Source: a virus
Lineage: Duplodnaviria; Caudoviricetes
Reading direction: 5' to 3' (one strand)
DNA length: 64,000 nucleotides
IMG/VR virus record: IMGVR_UViG_3300042997_000757
Span: 1 to 64,000 of that record
Every line of letters starts with the position of its first letter. Position 1 is the first letter of the stretch. A program made the translations under genes and the position numbers. The notes beneath the pieces are model-generated. The model worked only from the letters and a program-made list of their open reading frames with translations. It was not told the origin of the DNA and did no database searches. Shown one piece after another: positions 2,795 to 30,388 of this stretch.

Positions 2795-4545
2795 TAGTAG
2801 TTTTCCAATCCGGGAAGTTGGAATTGCTCGCCTCTTTTACCTTTAGCACGCAATAGGTATTCCTCATGTGCGCTTTTAGCGGTGTCACCATAACCATGTG
2901 CGTCTAAGTGTTGTCGGATATGTGGCAGGTCTTCATACATTTTCCCAAGAGTTAAACGGTTAACTAATTCACCATGTTCTTTGGTGGGGCGCCCAAAATC
3001 ACCAATACCTTTATTGTGCTCTTCAGTAGTGATAAGGGATTGAGCAACATGACTGCGAGAAGGGATATCCTCAAAATTTCTGTCACTTAAACCACTATGA
3101 AAACGTGTTGCGGCGTAAAGGGCACGGTGTGTATTGTTTTCCCAACCACGGTACATAGTGCCGTACCCTTGCGATGTAATGTCAGCCACTCTTTCTTTTG
3201 AATGTCCTAACGTATCTTCAAATGAATCAGCATAACGTACATGCCGGTCACGGAATGCATCAGCAATGCCTTCGCTCATAGGGTCGGCACGTTTATTACT
3301 TTTTTGAAACCGTGTGATATCGTAACGTTCTCTAACGTATGGGTCACGGGTATGCCCAATTTCATGTAGCAATGTCCCTGCATCAACTGTTGGTGCTACT
3401 TTTTCTTTTTTGATTTCAGTAGTTGTTCCCTCAAGTGGGTTTGAAGGGTCTGGGGAAAAACGAGTATGGTACTTACTGCTGTTATAACCATAACCTCGTG
3501 ACTTGTACCCAGTTTCAATAGAAACATCACGACCTACAGAATGTTTATTTCCTGACTTACCTTTACCGGGGAATAAGTTAGGAACATATCCTTGTTTTCT
3601 AAGGCTTTCAACCGCATTAGAATGGGTTCGACGAGGTATTTGGGTAAAGGAACCATGCCATTCTTCTACCTCATGTTTTTGAAGAGTGTGTCCAGTTGTA
3701 GGATTATGCCAGTGAGTTGCATGTTCAAGTGCATCTTTGTCTGCGGAATGTTCATAAGATAATTTATCTTGTAACTGATCCCAGAACTTTGGGTTATGTA
3801 TAGGTTTGTGAGGATCTGCTTGATAACCACTTCTAGGGACTTCAACTCTAACTTCTCTCGTGGTGTACCCAATGGTGTTCATTTTAACACCACGGGAGCC
3901 TCCTATAGCATCCACTTCTGCGTGTGCCTGCCCCGGTTTAGGGTCAACTACTGCCCGTGCTTTAGTTCTTTCTAATTCATGAGTTGGGTAACCAGTATTA
4001 TCAAGGGTATCTGCCAACACGTTCATGTATTCTTGTGCTGATTTATCCCCCATTTTTGAAGTAATTTGGTTTTTAAACTGTGGGGTTGATACCGTTACCC
4101 TTTTGGTTTTCATACCAACTTCACCGTCAGGGTTGTATATAATTCGTTCTTCGTCTTTATGGACGTGTTTACCTTGTTTATCTAAAAGAGGTACTTGTTT
4201 GGAAGCACGTTGTGAAGGAACGATTTGCCCAAGATTACGGCGGTATTTCGTAACATCTTCTACATCGATGGCTTTGCGAACAGCAGCCATACGTTTTTCG
4301 TGTGGTACTAGTGGGTCGTGTCGACGACCCGTACCCGTGTCTGGGGGAAACAGCATTCCTTGGTAATAAGTTCCTGCGCCTTCTTCATAAGGCCATGTAT
4401 GTTTACTATGTGTCTCTACCTCATCGTCTGTGTAAGCACCCCACCGTCCTGAAGGTATAGGAGAACCTTTTTCTCTACCGTGGAAAACGGTACTACCCTC
4501 AGGGTGGTTGTAGTAGGTATTATCAAACTGTTTACCTAAAGGCAT
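2794..4545 (-). CDS. Putative zincin metallopeptidase (HExxH+E); paralog of 4545-6269
   Basis: TLLHEIGH...EGIADAF; collinear similarity to neighbour over full length. Confidence 0.65.
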   Translation of the reverse strand: MPLGKQFDNTYYNHPEGSTVFHGREKGSPIPSGRWGAYTDDEVETHSKHTWPYEEGAGTYYQGMLFPPDTGTGRRHDPLVPHEKRMAAVRKAIDVEDVTKYRRNLGQIVPSQRASKQVPLLDKQGKHVHKDEERIIYNPDGEVGMKTKRVTVSTPQFKNQITSKMGDKSAQEYMNVLADTLDNTGYPTHELERTKARAVVDPKPGQAHAEVDAIGGSRGVKMNTIGYTTREVRVEVPRSGYQADPHKPIHNPKFWDQLQDKLSYEHSADKDALEHATHWHNPTTGHTLQKHEVEEWHGSFTQIPRRTHSNAVESLRKQGYVPNLFPGKGKSGNKHSVGRDVSIETGYKSRGYGYNSSKYHTRFSPDPSNPLEGTTTEIKKEKVAPTVDAGTLLHEIGHTRDPYVRERYDITRFQKSNKRADPMSEGIADAFRDRHVRYADSFEDTLGHSKERVADITSQGYGTMYRGWENNTHRALYAATRFHSGLSDRNFEDIPSRSHVAQSLITTEEHNKGIGDFGRPTKEHGELVNRLTLGKMYEDLPHIRQHLDAHGYGDTAKSAHEEYLLRAKGKRGEQFQLPGLENY

Positions 4546-6269
4546 TAGTAGTTTTCCAATCCGGGAAGTTGAGAAGATTCAACTTTATGATCTTCAAACT
4601 GATTACCTGAAAGAAGTGTTCTTCTTTTTTTAGCACGATCAAGATATTCAGCATGTGCTTTTTTGGCAACGCCCCCGTAACCATGAGCATCTAAATGTTC
4701 ACGTACGTGTGGCTGATGTTCATAGATATGACCAAGGGCTAAGGTATTAACAAGATCACCATGTTTTCTACCGGCTTCAGTAGTGTTTCTAGTGCGCCCT
4801 CGGTGCCAATCAGCATCTGTTTCACGGTAAGTTAAATATTCCTCAGAAAGGTCTTCACGGGAAGGAATATCTTCAAAGTTTGTGTCACCTAGGGCGCTGT
4901 GAAAACGTGTTGCAGCATAAAGAGCACGGTGAGTGTTGTTTTTCCATCCGCCGTACGCAGTACTGTAACTTGTGCCTTTTATTGTCTCAACTCGGTTATC
5001 TGAGTGAGACAAGACGTCATCAAACTGACCTGCATAACGAGAATGCCGATCTTGAAAACCATCTGCAACTCCTTCCAACATAGGGTCAGCATAGGAATCT
5101 TTATGATGAGTCCAAATGTGGTATTTATCATCTGTGTTGGGATCACGATTATGCCCAATTTCATGAACAAGGGTGCCTTCGTTCAATCTTGGAGGATTAG
5201 TTTTGGTTACTGGTACTAACTCTGTTTCCTTAAGTGGGTTTGAAGAGTCTGGGGAAAAACGAGTATGGTATTTGCGGGTGCGGTACTGTTGATAATCGCT
5301 ATTTCCATAGCCAACTTCTATGTCATGTGTATCTCCAGCAGAATGTTTTACCCCATGTTCCCCTTTACCGGGGAATAGGTTAGGAAAATAACCTTGTTCT
5401 TTTAGTTTTGCAGCCGTTTCAATAAAAACACTACGACCGCTGGCTTCGGGGTGTTTTTCAGCCCAGTCTCCCACGTCATCTTGGTGAAGAGTGTGCCCAG
5501 TTGTGGGGTTATGCCAGTGGGTTGCCGTGCTTATTACTTGATCACTTGTATACGAATACTCGTCATCCATCTGTTTACCTAACTGCCCCCAAAACTTTGG
5601 GTTATGTACAGGCTTTGTGGTATCTGGCTCATACCTATTTGAAGGAGGGGCTTCCCAAGAAGTGACTTTACCCCCCGGTATGACGTTCATTTTAATGCCT
5701 TGACCAAAAGATTCGGCATGTGCTCGACCTTTTCTAGGGTCAACTACTGCCTGTGCGGTAGTTTTTTGTATTTCATGCGTTGGGTAGTCGGTATTATCAA
5801 GGGTGTCAGCCAACATCCCCATGTAACCTTGTGCTGATTTTGCACTTTGTTTTGAAGTAACTGTTCTATCTACATATGCCATCCCCGATTTTGGGTTAAT
5901 AACAGGGTTGCCTTCTTTATCTGTTCTATCTTTATAAGTATCTACTCGTTGGGAAGGAACAAGATATCCAAGGTTACGACGGTATTTAGTAACGTCATTT
6001 ATGTCTAAGGCTGTTCGGATAGCGCTCATGCGGGTTTCGTGAGGAACTAACGGATCGTCACGATGACCAGTGGCAGTGGATGGGTGAAACAACATTCCTT
6101 GAAGAGGAGTCCCTGAAACATTGGGATTCCCTGAGTCATTAGAGAGTTTTTGAATATGAGGTTTACTGGTCTTAAATGGTGGGATGGAACCTTCGTTCCT
6201 GACAGATGCAGTAGTTCCGCCATCATCGTCGTGCCAGAACGTGTTTTCAAACTGCTTGCCTAAAGTCAT
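4545..6269 (-). CDS. Putative zincin metallopeptidase (HExxH+E); tandem paralog
   Basis: TLVHEIGH...EGVADGF; both paralogs end QLPGLENY. Confidence 0.65.
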   Translation of the reverse strand: MTLGKQFENTFWHDDDGGTTASVRNEGSIPPFKTSKPHIQKLSNDSGNPNVSGTPLQGMLFHPSTATGHRDDPLVPHETRMSAIRTALDINDVTKYRRNLGYLVPSQRVDTYKDRTDKEGNPVINPKSGMAYVDRTVTSKQSAKSAQGYMGMLADTLDNTDYPTHEIQKTTAQAVVDPRKGRAHAESFGQGIKMNVIPGGKVTSWEAPPSNRYEPDTTKPVHNPKFWGQLGKQMDDEYSYTSDQVISTATHWHNPTTGHTLHQDDVGDWAEKHPEASGRSVFIETAAKLKEQGYFPNLFPGKGEHGVKHSAGDTHDIEVGYGNSDYQQYRTRKYHTRFSPDSSNPLKETELVPVTKTNPPRLNEGTLVHEIGHNRDPNTDDKYHIWTHHKDSYADPMLEGVADGFQDRHSRYAGQFDDVLSHSDNRVETIKGTSYSTAYGGWKNNTHRALYAATRFHSALGDTNFEDIPSREDLSEEYLTYRETDADWHRGRTRNTTEAGRKHGDLVNTLALGHIYEHQPHVREHLDAHGYGGVAKKAHAEYLDRAKKRRTLLSGNQFEDHKVESSQLPGLENY

Positions 6270-12197: not shown

Positions 12198-12605
12198 TTA
12201 GTCTCGTTCATGAAGGTAGGTTTCATCTTCACGGTGTACATGTCCCGGTAGGCGGTCAGATTGTGCTTCTGGGTCATTGACAGACTCTGTATAGGTCACA
12301 GGAACCATCCATGAGGGGTCAATATCATGTGCGGCGGCAATACGGTGAGCGCCATTGATCAATGTTGTCTGCCCACGACTTCTACTTAAACGAATAGGGT
12401 TAACCATACCCTCTTTGCGAAGACTTTTATGCAAACCTATGGCTTGCGCCTCGTCCCCTTTGCGGTTCCAGAAGGCTTCTTCAGAGGGATGCCCAGATCT
12501 AGTGACATCTTTAGTGGTCATTTCTAGGTCTGACCCTTCAAGTTCTTCACGAAGCATACGCACAGGCATGAACAGTTGTCCGTTAAGGTGATGCCATGTA
12601 GCCAT
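12198..12605 (-). CDS. ParB/Srx-like domain protein
   Basis: LRKEGMVNPI..LINGAHRIAAA; paralog of 10081-10518. Confidence 0.7.
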   Translation of the reverse strand: MATWHHLNGQLFMPVRMLREELEGSDLEMTTKDVTRSGHPSEEAFWNRKGDEAQAIGLHKSLRKEGMVNPIRLSRSRGQTTLINGAHRIAAAHDIDPSWMVPVTYTESVNDPEAQSDRLPGHVHREDETYLHERD

Positions 12606-12715
12606 ACACCCAGTATAGGGCTATTTGGTGCGATTTTCAGGGTAACCCATTGTTGGAATAGGTCTATTGCGTCATTTTTTCGTGTTGTCGCTGACTCGAC
12701 CCTACCCCCCACCCC

Positions 12716-13492
12716 TGTGACGAACGTCACTTAACCATGGGGGGGTGCCTTTCGTCACACCTCGGCGCCTGCACCGTGGGTGCCTCGCCCCCCGTGGCGC
12801 CCTGAGCGCCCCCCAGTGCCCCGTGTGACCTCCGATGGCATGGTTATATGTCACACCCCCCCTCTGTGGCTTGACTGGAGGGGAAATTTGTGCGCAATTA
12901 CGAAAGCCTTATGTTATAAGGGTTTCCCGAGGTCTGAATTTCCCTACTACATGGCGCCACCCTTTGTCAAGTCATAGCGAAATAGGGCGAAAGCCTTATG
13001 GCACAAGGGGTTGAGGGGTGTTGTGACGAACGTCACGTACCTCAAGCCCTTTAAAATAGCGGATATGCCTTTTTATTGGCGCCTAAGGGGGGTTTCCCTC
13101 TGATATTGACTCGTTATCCCCGAGGAGGGGGTAGATCGCTGAGAACGGCGTACAGGGCTGTCTCAGGGGCAAACAGATTATTTAAAGGAAATGTGTGTTT
13201 TCGCCCCTAGAAATGGGGCTATGTGACGAACGACACACACAGGAGGGCGTACGGGGTAGGTATTCCCACTACCTCCCAGCCCCCAGTACCAATGTTGCAC
13301 CTGAGCACCACACATCAGGCGTAGCACCCCCTGTCTCCCCTCCTGTCTCCCTTGGTGAATCCATGGGAGGTCTGTCGGTTTGGCGCCCTTTTCTTCGCCC
13401 ATAAAGCCCTCGGAGCCTTATTCCGTACGGGTTTGAGCCATTTCCAGCGCATACCTCTTATATGCACTTATGCATATGTGACGAAGGTCACA
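12716..13492. promoter_or_regulatory. Five CRP-type operator sites (TGTGA-CGAAnG-TCACA-like)
   Basis: 12716-12731, 12744-12759 (reverse), 13022-13037, 13222-13237, 13477-13492 (perfect consensus). Confidence 0.65.
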
Positions 13493-13545
13493 CCCATGGA
13501 TGCATCCACAATGCGCATTTAATCCATCAGCCGTGCCTACAATGG

Positions 13546-13945
13546 CGCTGGAGGCACATATCCCTCCAGCGGTTGACACCGCTCCTCGGTCAATTAATTG
13601 TTAGGCGCCACGAACGGCAGGCATCGCTCCCGAGGAGATCCGCAAGCAACAGAGGTGAAGGCAACACGGCAAAGTGCTGTGATAACGCTTGCGAAATACT
13701 CCGACCCCTTAGACGACGGATGACCGCAGGAAAGCACACAGCGCCCCGTGGGTGGAGCAACCACCGCTAACAATTCAAGCCTGTCTCAGTGGCAACTGAG
13801 GCTGATCGGCGCTCACATAAAAAGAGCGCCCCAACGCATACCTGCACTTCTCTTCGGATGAGAACTTCTCGGGCAACCCCGAGATGTCAGAGCAACACTG
13901 AGCGCAGGTTCTACGCCTTTGGCGTTTTACAACAAGCAATTAATT
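13546..13945 (+). ncRNA. Large structured non-coding RNA or leader of unknown class
   Basis: About ten helices found by eye, GCAA/UUCG-type loops, G-U pairs on + strand; TACAAT at 13538-13543 just upstream. Confidence 0.65.
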
Positions 13946-13964
13946 CTCTTGAAAGGGGAACGCA

Positions 13965-14975
13965 ATGTCCGCACCAACCATCAACCTTGAAGCCCTCACT
14001 CCTGTTGAGCATGACCTGCTCTACTGCGAACGGCTCATCCTTCTCTCCAACGTCCGCTGGAACCATAAATGTTCATCTGAGAACGTCGTGCGCTACTTCG
14101 GCAAGGACGTCTACTTGCCAACGGGCGAATTTTCCTACGGTCGTGAACGTCACTCATCGGTGTACATCGCACCGAACACAGTGGTTGAGCCAACACACCT
14201 CAGTGAGGCTGTGGTTCTCACCGCTGATGAGGCTGTGCGTCTCTACGAGTTAGGCGTGGCTTGCCACAAGTCGTACCTCGCTGAGTCACTTGCTGAAACC
14301 ATCGTCCAGTTCAAAAAGGACGTGAAGACACTGGCATGGGCTGAGGCGCTCGTCGCTGACTGCGAACTTGAGTACAGCCGACGCCAGTGGGCACGCTTTT
14401 ATCTAGTGACGTCGTCTGACGGTCACATCCACAAGTCAACGTGGTGCTCCACATGCAACAAGGGTCAGTACGCCACCTCGTTCGCCTTGGTGCCTTACCT
14501 GAGTGGTGCAAGCGTCGCTGACGCTGTCGCAGACCTCGGGTGCGCATTGTGCTCGGTGTGTTTCCCCGATGCCCCTGTTGAATCCAAGGAGCAGGTCAAG
14601 ATCAGCGCTCGTGTTGCACTGGTGCTCGCAGAGCGTGGTGTGGAGGCATTCCAAGAGGCACGAGCCAAGGCTCAGGCTGACGCACAAAAGCGTGCCAGCG
14701 ACCGCTGTGAAGGCAGTGGCACTGAGTCTGCAAGAGGCGAGCGCTACGGCTACGCCTGCACGGTGTGTGGCAACACTCAGCGCAACGCTGGCAAGGTGCG
14801 TGCACATCGTCGTCCTCGGTTCTACGCAGTCAAGGAAAACTGGCAGGGGTACAACGACGGCTGGTGGAACGGCACCGACTGGGCACCAAGCACCAAGAAG
14901 TTGGCATTGTCCAGCAGAGAAGAAGCACAAGCCATCGTGGAGGCTCACGGTGGTGACCGAGTCCGCTCGGAGTAA
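13965..14975 (+). CDS. Early hypothetical protein with Cys/His metal-binding motifs
   Basis: GHIHKSTWCSTC, LCSVCFP, CTVCG; RBS GAAAGGGG. Confidence 0.75.
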   Translation: MSAPTINLEALTPVEHDLLYCERLILLSNVRWNHKCSSENVVRYFGKDVYLPTGEFSYGRERHSSVYIAPNTVVEPTHLSEAVVLTADEAVRLYELGVACHKSYLAESLAETIVQFKKDVKTLAWAEALVADCELEYSRRQWARFYLVTSSDGHIHKSTWCSTCNKGQYATSFALVPYLSGASVADAVADLGCALCSVCFPDAPVESKEQVKISARVALVLAERGVEAFQEARAKAQADAQKRASDRCEGSGTESARGERYGYACTVCGNTQRNAGKVRAHRRPRFYAVKENWQGYNDGWWNGTDWAPSTKKLALSSREEAQAIVEAHGGDRVRSE

Positions 14976-14981
14976 TCAACG

Positions 14982-15055
14982 GCATCAGCGCTTCGGCGCT
15001 GGTGCTCACAGAGGGCATCGGGTTCACGCTCGGTGCCTTCTGTGAGCATTCGCTC
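14982..15055 (+). ncRNA. Three-hairpin intergenic element, copy A
   Basis: GCATCAGCGC-TTCG-GCGCTGGTGC; ~17-19-bp second stem; GAGC-ATTC-GCTC. Confidence 0.7.
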
Positions 15056-15088
15056 AACCAACCATTCTCTTGAAAGGGGAAATAAAAA

Positions 15089-17171: not shown

Positions 17172-17245
17172 GATCTAGGGGCGTCACTCCCCCGAGACAC
17201 GTCACCTGCTACTGCTCGGCAGGTGCGTGAGTTAAATGGGCAGGA

Positions 17246-17318
17246 GCGTCACCACTTCGGTGGTGGCGTCCTCAGAGGTCATCAGCGTCCTGCTGGTGGC
17301 TTCTGAGGGCGTAAGCCC
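17246..17318 (+). ncRNA. Three-hairpin intergenic element, copy B
   Basis: GCGTCACCAC-TTCG-GTGGTGGCGT; 17-bp second stem; GGGC-GTAA-GCCC. Confidence 0.7.
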
Positions 17319-17357
17319 GAGCACCAACCCAAACCATCAAGCCTTAGGAGGCACACA

Positions 17358-18944
17358 ATGAATGCACACCGCTCCACCCTTGACTCGTTGCTCACGCAAT
17401 TGCCACGAGTCGCCAACGCCATTGTCATTGATCAAGATCGTGCGAACCTCTCAGGTGCGCATGATGCTGACCTTGACTTTGACCTATCACTGCCACTGCT
17501 CCCGTACCAACGTGCTGGCGTCAAGTACATCCTTGAGCACAAGCATGAGGGCATCGGTCACCGTGCACTGCTCGGTGATGAGGCTGGTTTAGGTAAGACA
17601 GCGCAATTAATCGCTGTGGCACTCCATGCGAAGCGCAACGGCAAGCGCTCGCTCATCGTGGTGCCACCATCGCTTCGTGAGAACTGGCGCCGTGAGTTGT
17701 TGAAGTTCACTGCTGGCGAGTTGTCAGTTGAAGTCATCGCAGGTGCCAAGCCATACAAGTTGAGCAACGCTGACGTCATTGTCATCGGTGATGCAACGCT
17801 CGTCTCGTGGGCTGTAGCGCTCGGCAAGGTTGGCTTCGGCTCCTTGCTGGTTGATGAGTCACACCGTGCCAAGAACCCTCGTGCACAGCGCACCAAGGCT
17901 CTACAGGCTCTTGCGTTGACCATTGACAAGGATGGCTACATCGTCCTCGCTTCAGGCACTCCATGCCTCAACAAGCCACTAGAACTTGTCGCACAGTTAG
18001 ACATACTCGGTGTGCTCGCTCCAGTGTTCGGCTCTGCTGGCTCGTTCAAGTTTCGCTACTGCGATCCACAGCCAGTCAACATCGGACGTCGCATTGTCTA
18101 CACATACAACGGTGCGAGCAACACCGCTGAGTTGCACGACAAGTTGCGTGGCACGGTGTACATCCGACGTCGCAAGTTGGACGTGCTCACTGAGTTGCCA
18201 CCAAAGCGTCGTGCTCAACTGGCTATCGCATTGAGTGATGCGACACTGCGTGAGTACAACCGCATTGAGGCAGACTTCCTCGCTTGGGTATTTGACAAGG
18301 GTGGACGTGAAGCAGTGCTCAAGGCATCCAATGCCGAGACCATCACACGCCTCACAGCGCTCTTGCAGGAACTTGGCAAGGCAAAGGTGGAGGCAGGAAT
18401 TGAGCATGTTGAGAGCCTCATTGACGGCGACCAGCCTGTTGTGGTGTTCGCTCACCACCGTGCAGTCATTGACGCATTCATCGCTGAGTGCGACAAGCGT
18501 GCCGAGACAGATCCACGCTGGCGTGCGGTCAAGGTTGTCGGTGGTCTTGGTGATGAAGCCAAGCAAAAGGCTGTAGACGCTTTCCGCTCGGGTGAAGCCA
18601 ACATCTTCGTTGGCAACTACCAAGCCTCAGGTGTCGGTCTCACGCTCACCTCCAGTGGCGACAAAGCATGCACCCAGTGGGTGTCGCTTCAACTGCCATG
18701 GGAGCCAAGCACACTCAGCCAAGCAGAAGATCGCATTCACCGCATCGGTCAGACCGAGTCGGTCACCTGCTGGCACATCACAGCCGTCAAGAAGGACTCC
18801 AGCGAGACGCTGGACGGTCGCTTGTATGCACTGCTCAACCACAAGAGTGAAGTCGTCTCCAGCGTGCTGGATGGCTTCGCTAGTGACCTCGGTGCAGAGG
18901 CTGGTTCAATCATCGCTTCCCTACTTGAAGAGTGGGTCGGCTAA
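17358..18944 (+). CDS. SNF2/HARP-like SF2 helicase (early region)
   Basis: DEAGLGKT, DESH, SGTP, QAEDRIHRIGQ. Confidence 0.9.
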   Translation: MNAHRSTLDSLLTQLPRVANAIVIDQDRANLSGAHDADLDFDLSLPLLPYQRAGVKYILEHKHEGIGHRALLGDEAGLGKTAQLIAVALHAKRNGKRSLIVVPPSLRENWRRELLKFTAGELSVEVIAGAKPYKLSNADVIVIGDATLVSWAVALGKVGFGSLLVDESHRAKNPRAQRTKALQALALTIDKDGYIVLASGTPCLNKPLELVAQLDILGVLAPVFGSAGSFKFRYCDPQPVNIGRRIVYTYNGASNTAELHDKLRGTVYIRRRKLDVLTELPPKRRAQLAIALSDATLREYNRIEADFLAWVFDKGGREAVLKASNAETITRLTALLQELGKAKVEAGIEHVESLIDGDQPVVVFAHHRAVIDAFIAECDKRAETDPRWRAVKVVGGLGDEAKQKAVDAFRSGEANIFVGNYQASGVGLTLTSSGDKACTQWVSLQLPWEPSTLSQAEDRIHRIGQTESVTCWHITAVKKDSSETLDGRLYALLNHKSEVVSSVLDGFASDLGAEAGSIIASLLEEWVG

Positions 18945-18965: not shown

Positions 18966-19059
18966 ACGTCACAGAGGCAACTCTGTGGCGTGCCATGGGC
19001 ACTGCGGTGTGGGTCTTCCCCTTTCACAACACATCGCAGTGCTCATGGGACGCAAGTCC
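18966..19059 (+). ncRNA. Three-hairpin element, copy C; loop antisense to the TGAAAGGGGAA RBS
   Basis: ACGTCACAGAG-GCAA-CTCTGTGGCGT; 19-bp stem with loop TTCCCCTTTCA (19016-19026); GGAC-GCAA-GTCC. Confidence 0.7.
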
Positions 19060-20438: not shown

Positions 20439-20533
20439 GCATCACGGGCGAGAGTCCGTGGTGCGCTCAGGGTGCATGGGGCTTTTGCCTCCTAAGTTCC
20501 AGTCCCCATGCACTCTGAGGGCACTTACTGCCC
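20439..20533 (+). ncRNA. Three-hairpin element, copy D; loop antisense to the CTTAGGAGGCA RBS
   Basis: GCATCACGGGC-GAGA-GTCCGTGGTGC; 16-bp stem with loop TGCCTCCTAAG (20486-20496); GGGCA-CTTAC-TGCCC. Confidence 0.7.
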
Positions 20534-24258: not shown

Positions 24259-25299
24259 ATGTCCGCAGAATCAGCAGAGGTGCTTAATACCTTCCAATTA
24301 ATTGGATTCACTGACCCGACCTATGGTCGTGGCAATGCATGGCACAACAACCCCGTCTTGCGTCAGCAACTCGGTATTGAAGACAACCACTATGCACACG
24401 CCATCCCAGTAGACGACGTCCTGCGTCGTCTCTTCAACTGGGAAGCCATTGAAGCGCCAGTGTTCGTAGGTGTCCCACACAATGGTGGCACTCGTTACAT
24501 CGCTGACCCTGACCGCAAGGCAATCGTGCGCAGTGATGACGACACCGTCTTCAATGTGTTCAAGTCGGGGTACCAAGTCCACTCATACAAGAAGTGGCTC
24601 TTGGACACCGTGTCCAACATCATTGACGATGACAACCTCGCTATCGGTACCGCAGGTCTCTTGCGCCGTGGTGGCAAGGCATACGTCACGGTGGAGTTGC
24701 CCGACACGGTCAAGACTCCGTCAGGCTTCAATGTCCGCCCACACTTGCTCGCATGCACCTCGCATGATGGCACGCTGTCAACCACCTACAAGGCAATTGC
24801 CACCATCGTGGTGTGCGACAACACCCTTGCTGGTGCTCTCGGTGAATCCACCGCACAGCACAAGGTACGTCACAGCAAGCACAGCATCGGTCGCTTGCAG
24901 AACGTGCGTGATGCTCTTGGCATCGTGCATGAGTTCACTGATGACCTCGTGGCTGAGATTGAGCGCCTGTCCTCACAGGTGGTCACTGACAACGAGTTCC
25001 AAGCCATCATTGAGCAACTGATCCCTGTTGACCTCAGCATTGAGGTTCGCCCACAGGTGCAGGCTCGTGTGCAGAACAAGCGTGAACTCATCCGCCACAT
25101 CTACAAGACAGATGAGCGTGTGAAGGACTGGACAGGCACCAAGTTGGGTGTGCTTCAAGCATTCAACACCTACCAGCATCACTTTGCAGGTACCGACGTC
25201 TCACGCTCGGAGCGCAATGCTTTGAACGCCATCATCGGCAAGGCAGAAGCCAGCGACCGTCTTGTGCTCAACACCATTGACCAACTGGTGTCTGCATGA
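24259..25299 (+). CDS. DUF932 family (phage/plasmid-like TIGR03299) protein
   Basis: TAGLLRRG, LLACTSHDGT, VVCDNTL, KVRHSK. Confidence 0.85.
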   Translation: MSAESAEVLNTFQLIGFTDPTYGRGNAWHNNPVLRQQLGIEDNHYAHAIPVDDVLRRLFNWEAIEAPVFVGVPHNGGTRYIADPDRKAIVRSDDDTVFNVFKSGYQVHSYKKWLLDTVSNIIDDDNLAIGTAGLLRRGGKAYVTVELPDTVKTPSGFNVRPHLLACTSHDGTLSTTYKAIATIVVCDNTLAGALGESTAQHKVRHSKHSIGRLQNVRDALGIVHEFTDDLVAEIERLSSQVVTDNEFQAIIEQLIPVDLSIEVRPQVQARVQNKRELIRHIYKTDERVKDWTGTKLGVLQAFNTYQHHFAGTDVSRSERNALNAIIGKAEASDRLVLNTIDQLVSA

Positions 25300-28954: not shown

Positions 28955-30388
28955 TCAATCACCCGATAAATCAATAATTTCTGCGTACAAGTTATTTGTG
29001 CCTTCTTCGCTGAGACCACCGTTGGGGAGCATGCGTGCTTGCTCTCCTGCCTTAGCGCCAAACAAACGAGACAGCACTCCCGACGATCCACGGGCTTCAA
29101 CCTCAAAGCGAACAAGGTCACGGTTATCAGAAATGTTCTTTAGTTTTTCTACCATGGTAAATACCCTGTCCATCTCTGTAGACAATGTGGTGTCGATGCC
29201 TTGACCTTCTAGTTCTTCAGCAAACCTAGCGAACATCACACGACCTACTTGCATCTCCACCATGGCTCTCATAGCAGCATTAAGTTGATCTTTGGTGCGG
29301 ATCTCAATAGGCAAAGAAAACGCACACTCAGAATTCTCTTGAAACTGCGGACAACGGCTTGCCAAGTAACAATGATTGCATTGACGTAATGGGTCTGCGT
29401 TGTAACGCAAAACGTTTACACGTTCAGGGTCAATTTCTATTGATTCTCCTGAGTTTTCTGCATCATGTGAACCAAAAGAAGTGATGGTTTCAACACCCAT
29501 AACTGGTAACAATGTTCTGTCACTTGGGTGCCGTTTCTCAGGGATGTTAGTAACAATGTTTGACCCCCTAGAAACCGGAGATAGCACATTATCGGTACCC
29601 CCCGAAATCATAATGTTTTGGACATCTTCAGAGTTAGAAAACTCTTGCTCGTCATCATCTTTCATAAGGTCATAGCCCCCAAAATTCTTTGTTTCCCATG
29701 CTTGCCATGACCTAATAGAAAGAAGTGCTACCGCATTTACTTCATCATCCATAACAGCGTCAAAGTTGATGCCAAGACGTGTGATGTCATTTCTGTGTCG
29801 CCGTCTAGCGCTCTCTTTTTGTTGTGCTGGGTATCGGTGAAGTGTGTGACCATCCCATACCTGTGTTTCTCCGTAACGGATGGCGCTAGACCATGAACCC
29901 ACTACAACAGACTCCCATGGCATCTTCTCGATGAGGTCGGGCTTAGAGGTCATCCCAATAAGTTGTGACTGCCAACGCAAGGCAATCTGACCAATGCGAG
30001 CCATGTTCTTTCCTGTGATCGCTTTATCACTGATGGCTACACGAGGATACTTTTGGCAGAGCCACGTTAAACGCTCAAGGTCTGACTCGTCATTCCAAAT
30101 GGGAACGTATTTCTCCCCCATCCATGCACCGTCATAGTCAGGGCGACCAATCACATAAGTCAAACTATCTATGTGATCACGCACAAAAGAATCGTAACGA
30201 GCAAGATCCTCGTCTCCTTCTGAGGTGTACAAAACTATTTCATTGTTCTGAAACACCTGTGTGAGATCAAGAACCTTTTTCTTGGGGATGGGAAAGTGGG
30301 TGAGGTTGATACCAAACCTCTCTACGCCAGCCCCAAGAAGGATTGAACGGTGTGAGCCTTTCTCGGCTCCGCCAAAGAAAACTTTCAC
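28955..30388 (-). CDS. Hypothetical protein; possible TGT/DpdA-like barrel plus C-terminal Cys cluster
   Basis: KVFFGGAE..; SWSSAIRYG; CNHC...CP...C; fold assignment is a guess. Confidence 0.45.
   Translation of the reverse strand: MKVFFGGAEKGSHRSILLGAGVERFGINLTHFPIPKKKVLDLTQVFQNNEIVLYTSEGDEDLARYDSFVRDHIDSLTYVIGRPDYDGAWMGEKYVPIWNDESDLERLTWLCQKYPRVAISDKAITGKNMARIGQIALRWQSQLIGMTSKPDLIEKMPWESVVVGSWSSAIRYGETQVWDGHTLHRYPAQQKESARRRHRNDITRLGINFDAVMDDEVNAVALLSIRSWQAWETKNFGGYDLMKDDDEQEFSNSEDVQNIMISGGTDNVLSPVSRGSNIVTNIPEKRHPSDRTLLPVMGVETITSFGSHDAENSGESIEIDPERVNVLRYNADPLRQCNHCYLASRCPQFQENSECAFSLPIEIRTKDQLNAAMRAMVEMQVGRVMFARFAEELEGQGIDTTLSTEMDRVFTMVEKLKNISDNRDLVRFEVEARGSSGVLSRLFGAKAGEQARMLPNGGLSEEGTNNLYAEIIDLSGD

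Follow-up and report, generated by a model that had tools for sequence, protein, structure and literature searches.

What does a phage keep in 1.36 kilobases (kb) of gene-free DNA directly ahead of its early genes? The question is raised by the virus record IMGVR_UViG_3300042997_000757, whose first 64 kb (64,000 of 94,926 nucleotides, nt), hereafter the window, encode a DNA polymerase, helicases and baseplate proteins as well as WhiB, a marker by which freshwater phages have been attributed to Actinobacteria (PMC6802176). The host is thus probably actinobacterial, at phylum level. In the window, the gap separates leftward genes (to 12605) from a run of rightward small genes (from 13965) which, judged by its gene content and position, is probably the early operon. 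The original prediction, made from the sequence alone, placed here an undescribed large non-coding RNA (ncRNA) or switching leader (13546-13945), probably transcribed among the first. In this study, we report that a conserved, non-coding RNA structure is found on the + strand at the head of the early operon (13550-13932), that it is exchangeable and that it is independent of the gene downstream. It measures about 380 nt in the window and about 315 nt in two distant phages, L109 and L306. We are nearly certain that it is a real structured RNA.

Conservation and covariation of the RNA

The carriers of the RNA belong to three independent lineages. L109, a 94-kb IMG/VR record reached via its SNF2 gene (61% identical), aligned with the window at 80% identity over 13553-13670 and at 70% over 13746-13908. 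The sequences of L109, strain L122 and the window went into a covariance model (R1), from which L306, an ENA contig whose SNF2 is 62% identical, was left out; this model recovered L306 with 244.5 bits and an E-value of 1e-75. Over 312 shared columns the window was 69-70% identical to L109 and to L306, and these two were 85% identical to each other. When the 1.36-kb gap was compared with that of genome G038, only the left junction and the RNA aligned, at 70-80%, while the neighbouring SNF2 gene showed 66%; between two full genomes the RNA is conserved at least as well as the neighbouring genes.

Covariation is the deciding evidence for a structured RNA. In a plain MAFFT alignment, 16 of 72 pairs had changed on both sides, in seven helices, among them P2, P5, P7, P8, P9b and P9c (described below); this count was reached by none of 500 shuffles, and slid controls gave 0-2. 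The proportion of paired cells in the alignment was 98.4%, a value favoured by the derivation of the structure from the same sequences, which does not favour the double changes. Invariant columns numbered 196 of the 312, the majority being unpaired in the model. Folding of the + strand was better than that of dinucleotide-shuffled controls (z = -5.6, 0 of 100 shuffles as good; z = -2.6 for the - strand). It must be noted that one of 40 control windows of the same genome scored lower than the RNA, in a noisy comparison with 10 shuffles each, and the folding score alone is therefore not decisive. Features proper to RNA are indicated by the one-sided substitutions, which go to G-U, by an invariant UUCG loop and by GNRA loops at P5, together with the better folding of the + strand. 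In addition, the open reading frames (ORFs) that compete for the same bases are not conserved: ORF 13462-13770 is frameshifted in strains L121 and L122 and stopped in L109, where ORF 13789-14253 is also stopped.

In the window, no Rfam family reached its gathering score; a search of 12600-14100 at E<=10 and one of the L109 copy present in L299 at E<=2 likewise gave no match. With regard to individual families, RNase P, transfer-messenger RNA (tmRNA), signal recognition particle RNA, 6S/Ms1 and group I and II introns gave no match to their models, in agreement with the original prediction, and ARAGORN found neither transfer RNA (tRNA) nor tmRNA in the window. Given this lack of matches and the strong covariation in two distant phages, the claim of an undescribed large ncRNA is upheld. 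A blastn search against GenBank phages returned two 44-nt matches only, both due to chance, and no second copy was found in the phage's own genome. DNA pattern scans, exact and gapped, detected only the pattern sources L109 and L136; the other viral and GTDB matches were chance and gave no profile match. The models were also run on sets of 38 and 67 related records, many of them fragments, and found the RNA only in the record of L109. L136 possesses a structured leader (1669-1990; folding z = -4.2) at the same position, with the same hairpin order and motif spacing and with two CACAUA-like loops. Its global alignment with the RNA reached z = 3.7-4.0 and R1 gave 8.4 bits, while models R2 and R3 found nothing at the expected place. 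This leader is possibly a distant member and was left out of the counts.

Boundaries and architecture

A likely -10 hexamer of the early promoter, TACAAT (13538-13543, + strand), precedes the first hairpin by 6 nt, and this spacing is identical in the window, L109 and L306. On this basis, transcription most likely starts at 13549-13550, which agrees with the claim that the RNA is among the first transcripts. The putative promoters of L109 and L306 read TTGACG-17 nt-GAGACT and TTGACG-17 nt-AAGACT, respectively. The window lacks a TTGACG -35 box and has in its place, about 65 nt upstream, a CRP/GlxR-like palindromic site (13477-13492), possibly an activator site for a promoter without a good -35. 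This site is the last of 4-5 similar boxes of the TGTGACGAA type in the gap (12716-13492); similar boxes occur in the same gap of L109, L306 and a further relative, L215. L215 and L293 hold many more copies of TGTGACGAA-like repeats, resembling iterons or CRP sites.

At the 3' side, similarity extends to about 13932, after a small hairpin followed by 3-4 U (P10, 13913-13932) and about 30 nt ahead of the first early gene. P10 is found at the same place in the window, L109, L306 and L136 with stem and loop altered, and it may represent a weak terminator or a processing boundary. The shared part of the RNA does not reach 13945, the end that had been proposed.

All helices listed in the original prediction are present in the window (9/9, 5/5, 8/8, 4/4 and 6/6 pairs, in addition to three hairpins given below), although comparison with relatives trimmed several of them. 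At the 5' end, P1 (13550-13567), formed by 13550-13554 and 13563-13567, occupies a boxB-like position and carries a conserved CACAUA loop, which is unchanged in L306 where GGAGG/CCUCC has become GGAGC/GCUCC. The outer four pairs once assigned to this helix are broken in strains L121 and L122 and lie upstream of the likely start; they are therefore not part of the RNA. The leader of another relative, L297 (12362-12430), is unrelated to the RNA and opens with the same CACAUAUC hairpin loop as P1, then a canonical boxA; this loop may bind a shared factor.

P1 is followed (13573-13593) by an invariant UUGAC, at the position where relatives have a boxA that is degenerate here, and an invariant GUCAA (13589-13593). 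The two form a candidate pseudoknot crossing P2, with 5/5 pairs in 4/4 sequences and no variation, hence no covariation. P2 (13582-13589 with 13630-13637) encloses, within 13582-13637, an AU-rich strand and the hairpin P3 (13607-13609 with 13616-13618). In P2, U-A is replaced by A-U in L109 and C-G by U-A in L306, which also has one U-U mismatch. The pairing CTCCTCGG/CCGAGGAG, formerly offered as an alternative, is in fact a conserved helix with two compensatory changes. A nearly invariant purine-rich linker (13648-13661) has a weak pairing option with 13831-13838 and can form 10/10 pairs with 13841-13851 (the candidate helix P4).

The central part starts with P5 (13665-13750), where C-G changes to U-A, and with the 76-nt arm on top of it (13670-13745). 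The nested arm that had been described is present in the window, but this 76-nt portion is restricted to the window's strain group; L109 and L306 have a GNRA tetraloop instead (GUGA and GCGA, respectively). As a separate observation, the ENA ERZ28612991 contig with P0002, the closest homolog of the first early gene, has a small reverse gene call whose distance to the first gene is 75-85 nt shorter than that of its counterpart in L105, a spacing as expected if this phage possessed the RNA without the arm. The predicted hairpins P6 (13751-13765, with a GCAAC loop), P7 (13783-13802) and P8 (13808-13830) come next, P7 with four and P8 with two compensatory pairs. A four-way junction (13841-13908) follows. 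It was kept from the original prediction except for the pair A13840-U13909, which is not conserved. Within it, P9 and P9a are invariant, while P9b and P9c show five and two compensatory pairs, respectively, and have GCAAC-type loops. P9a displays an invariant C(UUCG)G loop inside a 22-nt invariant block.

The early slot in related phages

With a junction motif at the strand switch as bait, 28 viral stretches were collected, mostly from the same phage family, and in most of them this RNA was not found. The same slot instead holds other leaders, which neither align to this RNA nor match Rfam. Family B, a longer ncRNA of about 800-1000 nt, is located in L129 (~210-1214), L132 (1-392), L137 (~450-1507), L152 (~4450-5275) and L215 (~1250-2114). 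Family C, of about 830 nt, lies some 700-1490 nt downstream of the junction motif in L272, L284 and L291 (which are identical), L282 and L279, with about 81% identity between members and 30 compensatory changes in 205 predicted pairs. Short leaders fill the slot in L002, L003, L274-277, L286, L295 and L296. With respect to details of these families, the conserved 3' domain of family B has a helix CCAUAACGG/CGUUAUCGG that changes jointly to CCAUGACGG/CGUCAUCGG, the family B leader of L152 has two boxA motifs, and family C starts with a hairpin and a boxA-like motif.

A boxA-type motif was present shortly after the promoter in 16 of the 28 loci. This phage boxA is nearly identical to that of the Acidimicrobiales rrn (ribosomal RNA, rRNA) leader, and most family B and C RNAs are located behind such an rRNA-type boxA. 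BoxA is the host signal for transcribing long untranslated RNA, and in rrn leaders the order is hairpin, then boxA (PMC8632103); the phage family uses this arrangement. In a matrix built from nine distinct phage sites, the Acidimicrobiales rrn site scored 15.3, a value not reached anywhere in the window's genome, and the relatives scored 15-22. The carriers of this RNA gave lower values: 6.3 in L109 and 4.8 in L306, reached by 0.1-0.2% of positions, and -2.9 in the window, reached by 3.5% of genome positions. UUGAC is the apparent sole remnant of boxA in this RNA, possibly held by its pairing with GUCAA.

In the SNF2 tree, the carriers of this RNA and those of family B are interleaved, which suggests that either the slot or SNF2 may have been exchanged between phages. 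In the window, the first early gene (13965-14975, + strand) codes for 336 amino acids with conserved Cys/His residues, belongs to no Pfam family and has 137 homologs. The RNA was not found upstream of its homologs in L002, L003, L006 and others, and in L109 and L306 the first gene after the RNA is a different one. The RNA is not tied to any one downstream gene. Additionally, type II hammerhead ribozymes (RF02276) were detected between early genes of L215 (3226-3281) and L297 (13019-13080 and 13627-13688), indicating that this phage family cuts up its early transcript.

Functional hypotheses and comparison with known RNAs

The reading that we favour, tentatively and at somewhat less than even chances, is that of an ncRNA cargo gene placed directly behind an early host-type promoter and acting by binding a host protein. 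It is preferred because unrelated large RNAs stand behind an intact boxA and short leaders suffice in sister phages, and because much of the invariant sequence is unpaired. In infection, the RNA would be the first product, made by host RNA polymerase as the opening ~315-380 nt of the early transcript. Folding would take place co-transcriptionally and give three domains, with P1-P3 at the 5' side, the hairpins P5-P8 in the centre and the four-way junction P9 at the 3' side, and the RNA would be freed, or left as a stable piece, through weak termination at P10 or processing. A putative host protein might then be bound via the invariant unpaired faces, namely the CACAUA loop, the three GCAAC loops, the purine linker and the P9/P9a block. 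Its role would resemble that of the small early proteins encoded around it, namely a factor for host takeover or counter-defence that can be exchanged. Unrelated RNAs in one slot, and the interleaving of their carriers on the SNF2 tree, are what is expected for swapped cargo. A wider proposal, which we consider rather doubtful, is that this phage family reserves a slot at the head of its early operon for exchangeable RNA genes. The slot would open with a copy of the host rRNA transcription signal, and three or more large RNAs without relation to one another (this one, B and C) would fill it. These would be RNA-only takeover or counter-defence effectors traded like early protein genes, and this RNA may also have assumed antitermination as its boxA decayed.

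In this regard, several points weigh against the cargo function. Both the transcription of the RNA and its existence as a discrete species are things that we infer. Neither a strong terminator nor a known cleavage motif was found between the RNA and the first gene, and no antisense target common to two genomes was found. Invariance is weak evidence here, since there are only three lineages and two of them are 85% alike. Finally, the position of the RNA, taken alone, fits a role in cis equally well.

Such a cis role is the main rival explanation, followed by a switch based on P4 and P9. As a leader, the RNA would render host RNA polymerase processive (antitermination) and shield the ~12-kb early transcript, either because P1 and the degenerate boxA serve as a loading site of the rrn/nut type or because the folded RNA binds the polymerase like the put RNAs of phage HK022, replacing the boxA of relatives. 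We regard this as possible, although rather unlikely. It is consistent with an RNA that begins at the putative transcription start, with the invariant UUGAC at the boxA position, with the frequency of boxA in the 28 loci and with the matrix, in which the Acidimicrobiales rrn site exceeds all positions of the window's genome. Moreover, putL follows closely on the early PL promoter and is effective over 10 kb (PMC9378689). However, the boxA of the window itself is degenerate (-2.9), and many relatives make do with a short hairpin-boxA leader, which would leave 300 further conserved bases superfluous for this task. Besides, put comprises about 70 nt and two stems and bears no resemblance to this RNA.

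According to the second rival, which we hold to be improbable, linker 13651-13661 would pair with 13841-13851 during synthesis and would later be displaced by P9/P9a, with a ligand, a protein or pausing setting the ratio and thereby controlling read-through to the early genes. The ten pairs of P4 are kept in 4/4 sequences, the sole substitution being A-U to G-U, and both strands are almost invariant, which fits a double constraint. P4 and P9 are predicted within 1-3 kcal/mol of each other in the window, L122 and L109, P4 being dominant until the 3' strand of P9 is made. On the other hand, P4 shows zero compensatory changes, and shuffled linkers paired equally well in both RNAs in 9% of trials (p ~0.09). 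No change in a terminator or in a ribosome-binding site (RBS) was found coupled to the P4 or P9 state, the downstream gene is not conserved and no Rfam riboswitch was matched. The P4/P9 alternative is a conserved lead.

The switch of the original prediction, in which 13592-13604 alternates between 13767-13775 and 13935-13945 and controls the RBS of the first gene, is highly improbable and, as a family feature, refuted. Both pairings exist in the window (13596-13604/13767-13775, 9/9; 13592-13602/13935-13945, 11/11), and for the full leader the predicted ensemble gives the 11-base-pair helix p = 0.86-0.96. Nevertheless, neither helix is kept in L109 or L306. The 9-base-pair helix retains about 4/9 pairs in the aligned register of both and has p<0.05 in the folding ensemble, and the partner of the longer helix is not present in either. 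When formed, the latter displaces P2, a helix with covariation support. The Shine-Dalgarno core is predicted to be paired in both states, and to the same extent when either helix is forced. The 11-base-pair helix is explained by the palindrome CAATTAATTG at 13591, which recurs at 13937. This palindrome is found at 13591-13600 within the RNA, at 13937-13945 just before the first RBS and at 24295-24304, and could be a strain-specific operator. For a homodimer, the one candidate loop is the copy at 13591-13600, which is broken in L306. The CUCC of P2 was considered for anti-Shine-Dalgarno pairing and discarded (p = 0.006-0.21, inconsistent).

A DNA-level element near the iteron-like repeats of the strand switch (single-stranded origin, injection or packaging signal) is scarcely credible: although the repeated boxes of an origin-like region adjoin the RNA and breaks in many related contigs lie nearby, RNA is indicated by the G-U-preserving changes, the UUCG and GNRA loops, the difference between the strands and the fixed distance of 6 nt from the -10 box to the start, and most relatives have the junction motif without the RNA element.

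Among known systems, the closest in kind are ROOL, GOLLD and OLE, large multi-domain covarying ncRNAs, ROOL having been solved at 659 nt (PMC12286853). They share with our RNA a large, multi-helix, covariation-backed structure, and phages and prophages are among the carriers of ROOL and GOLLD. They differ from it in that their covariance models are not matched; the present RNA is shorter (315-380 nt) and heads an early operon, and no conserved palindromic loop was found in it (the palindrome is broken in L306). Moreover, ROOL lies near tRNA genes, and none was found by ARAGORN in the window. The rrn leader, or nut-like element (PMC8632103, PMC10250234), has a comparable order of promoter, hairpin, TTGA-containing box and long structured RNA. 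Its boxB-type hairpin just after the start is matched by P1, with a compensatory change and a conserved loop, and a near-perfect Acidimicrobiales rrn boxA stands at this place in relatives. In contrast, the box is degenerate in this RNA (-2.9 to 6.3), boxC was not seen and the RNA downstream is not ribosomal. HK022 putL and putR (PMC9378689) are likewise structured phage RNAs used by host RNA polymerase immediately after an early promoter, which for our RNA is a deduced position; they are, however, two-stem elements of a lambdoid coliphage, 4-5 times smaller than this RNA with its roughly ten helices. Type II hammerheads beside phage genes (RF02276; PMC3088659) offer a parallel through the RNA-based processing of the same operon in L215 and L297, but this RNA has no hammerhead core and matches no Rfam ribozyme. 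Unlike riboswitches or attenuators, it has no consistent downstream gene function. A structured-RNA screen of IMG/VR, based on covariation in intergenic regions, yielded candidates no longer than 151 nt (PMC10690425), which could include a fragment of this RNA.

Other likenesses were considered and rejected. Small self-cleaving ribozymes (hammerhead, hepatitis delta virus (HDV)-like, hairpin, twister, pistol and hatchet) gave no Rfam match. By eye, UCCNCG resembles the L3 loop of HDV, but there is no P3 stem and the motif belongs to P2, where its pairing shows compensation. As to the hairpin ribozyme, its AGAA/GUC pair is missing from L109. Likenesses to RNase P, T-box, SAM-I and c-di-AMP RNAs were dropped for want of a model match. 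By the tests run, the RNA is a new family among the large phage RNAs of unknown function, outside ROOL, GOLLD, OLE, put and Rfam.

Large structured RNAs of bacteria and phages are rare and most of their functions are open. For the present family there is a model supported by covariation, with both ends defined; its 76-nt arm can be removed, and the natural form of 315 nt is compact and suits probing and cryo-electron microscopy. Furthermore, one slot with three unrelated RNAs or nearly nothing provides natural swaps by which a trans effector role could be told from cis antitermination. To date the family is narrow, with three lineages, a host known to phylum only and an expression deduced from the sequence.

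Some further traits of the genome must be mentioned. The junction motif (12603-12747) consists of TAGGGCTAT repeats followed by ACTTAACCATGGGGGG, is conserved in more than 20 related phages and is a candidate origin, packaging site or genome end; numerous related contigs end near it. Long intergenic hairpin elements are situated between early genes at 14976-15060, 17243-17360, 18966-19059 and 20439-20533. Alignment with G038 gave 74-82% for the first two; in two of the four the loops are antisense to RBS sequences, and the elements resemble RNase III or regulatory sites. Finally, a queuine tRNA-ribosyltransferase-like gene (phrog_887) is encoded on the - strand at 28955-30388, possibly for 7-deazaguanine DNA modification.
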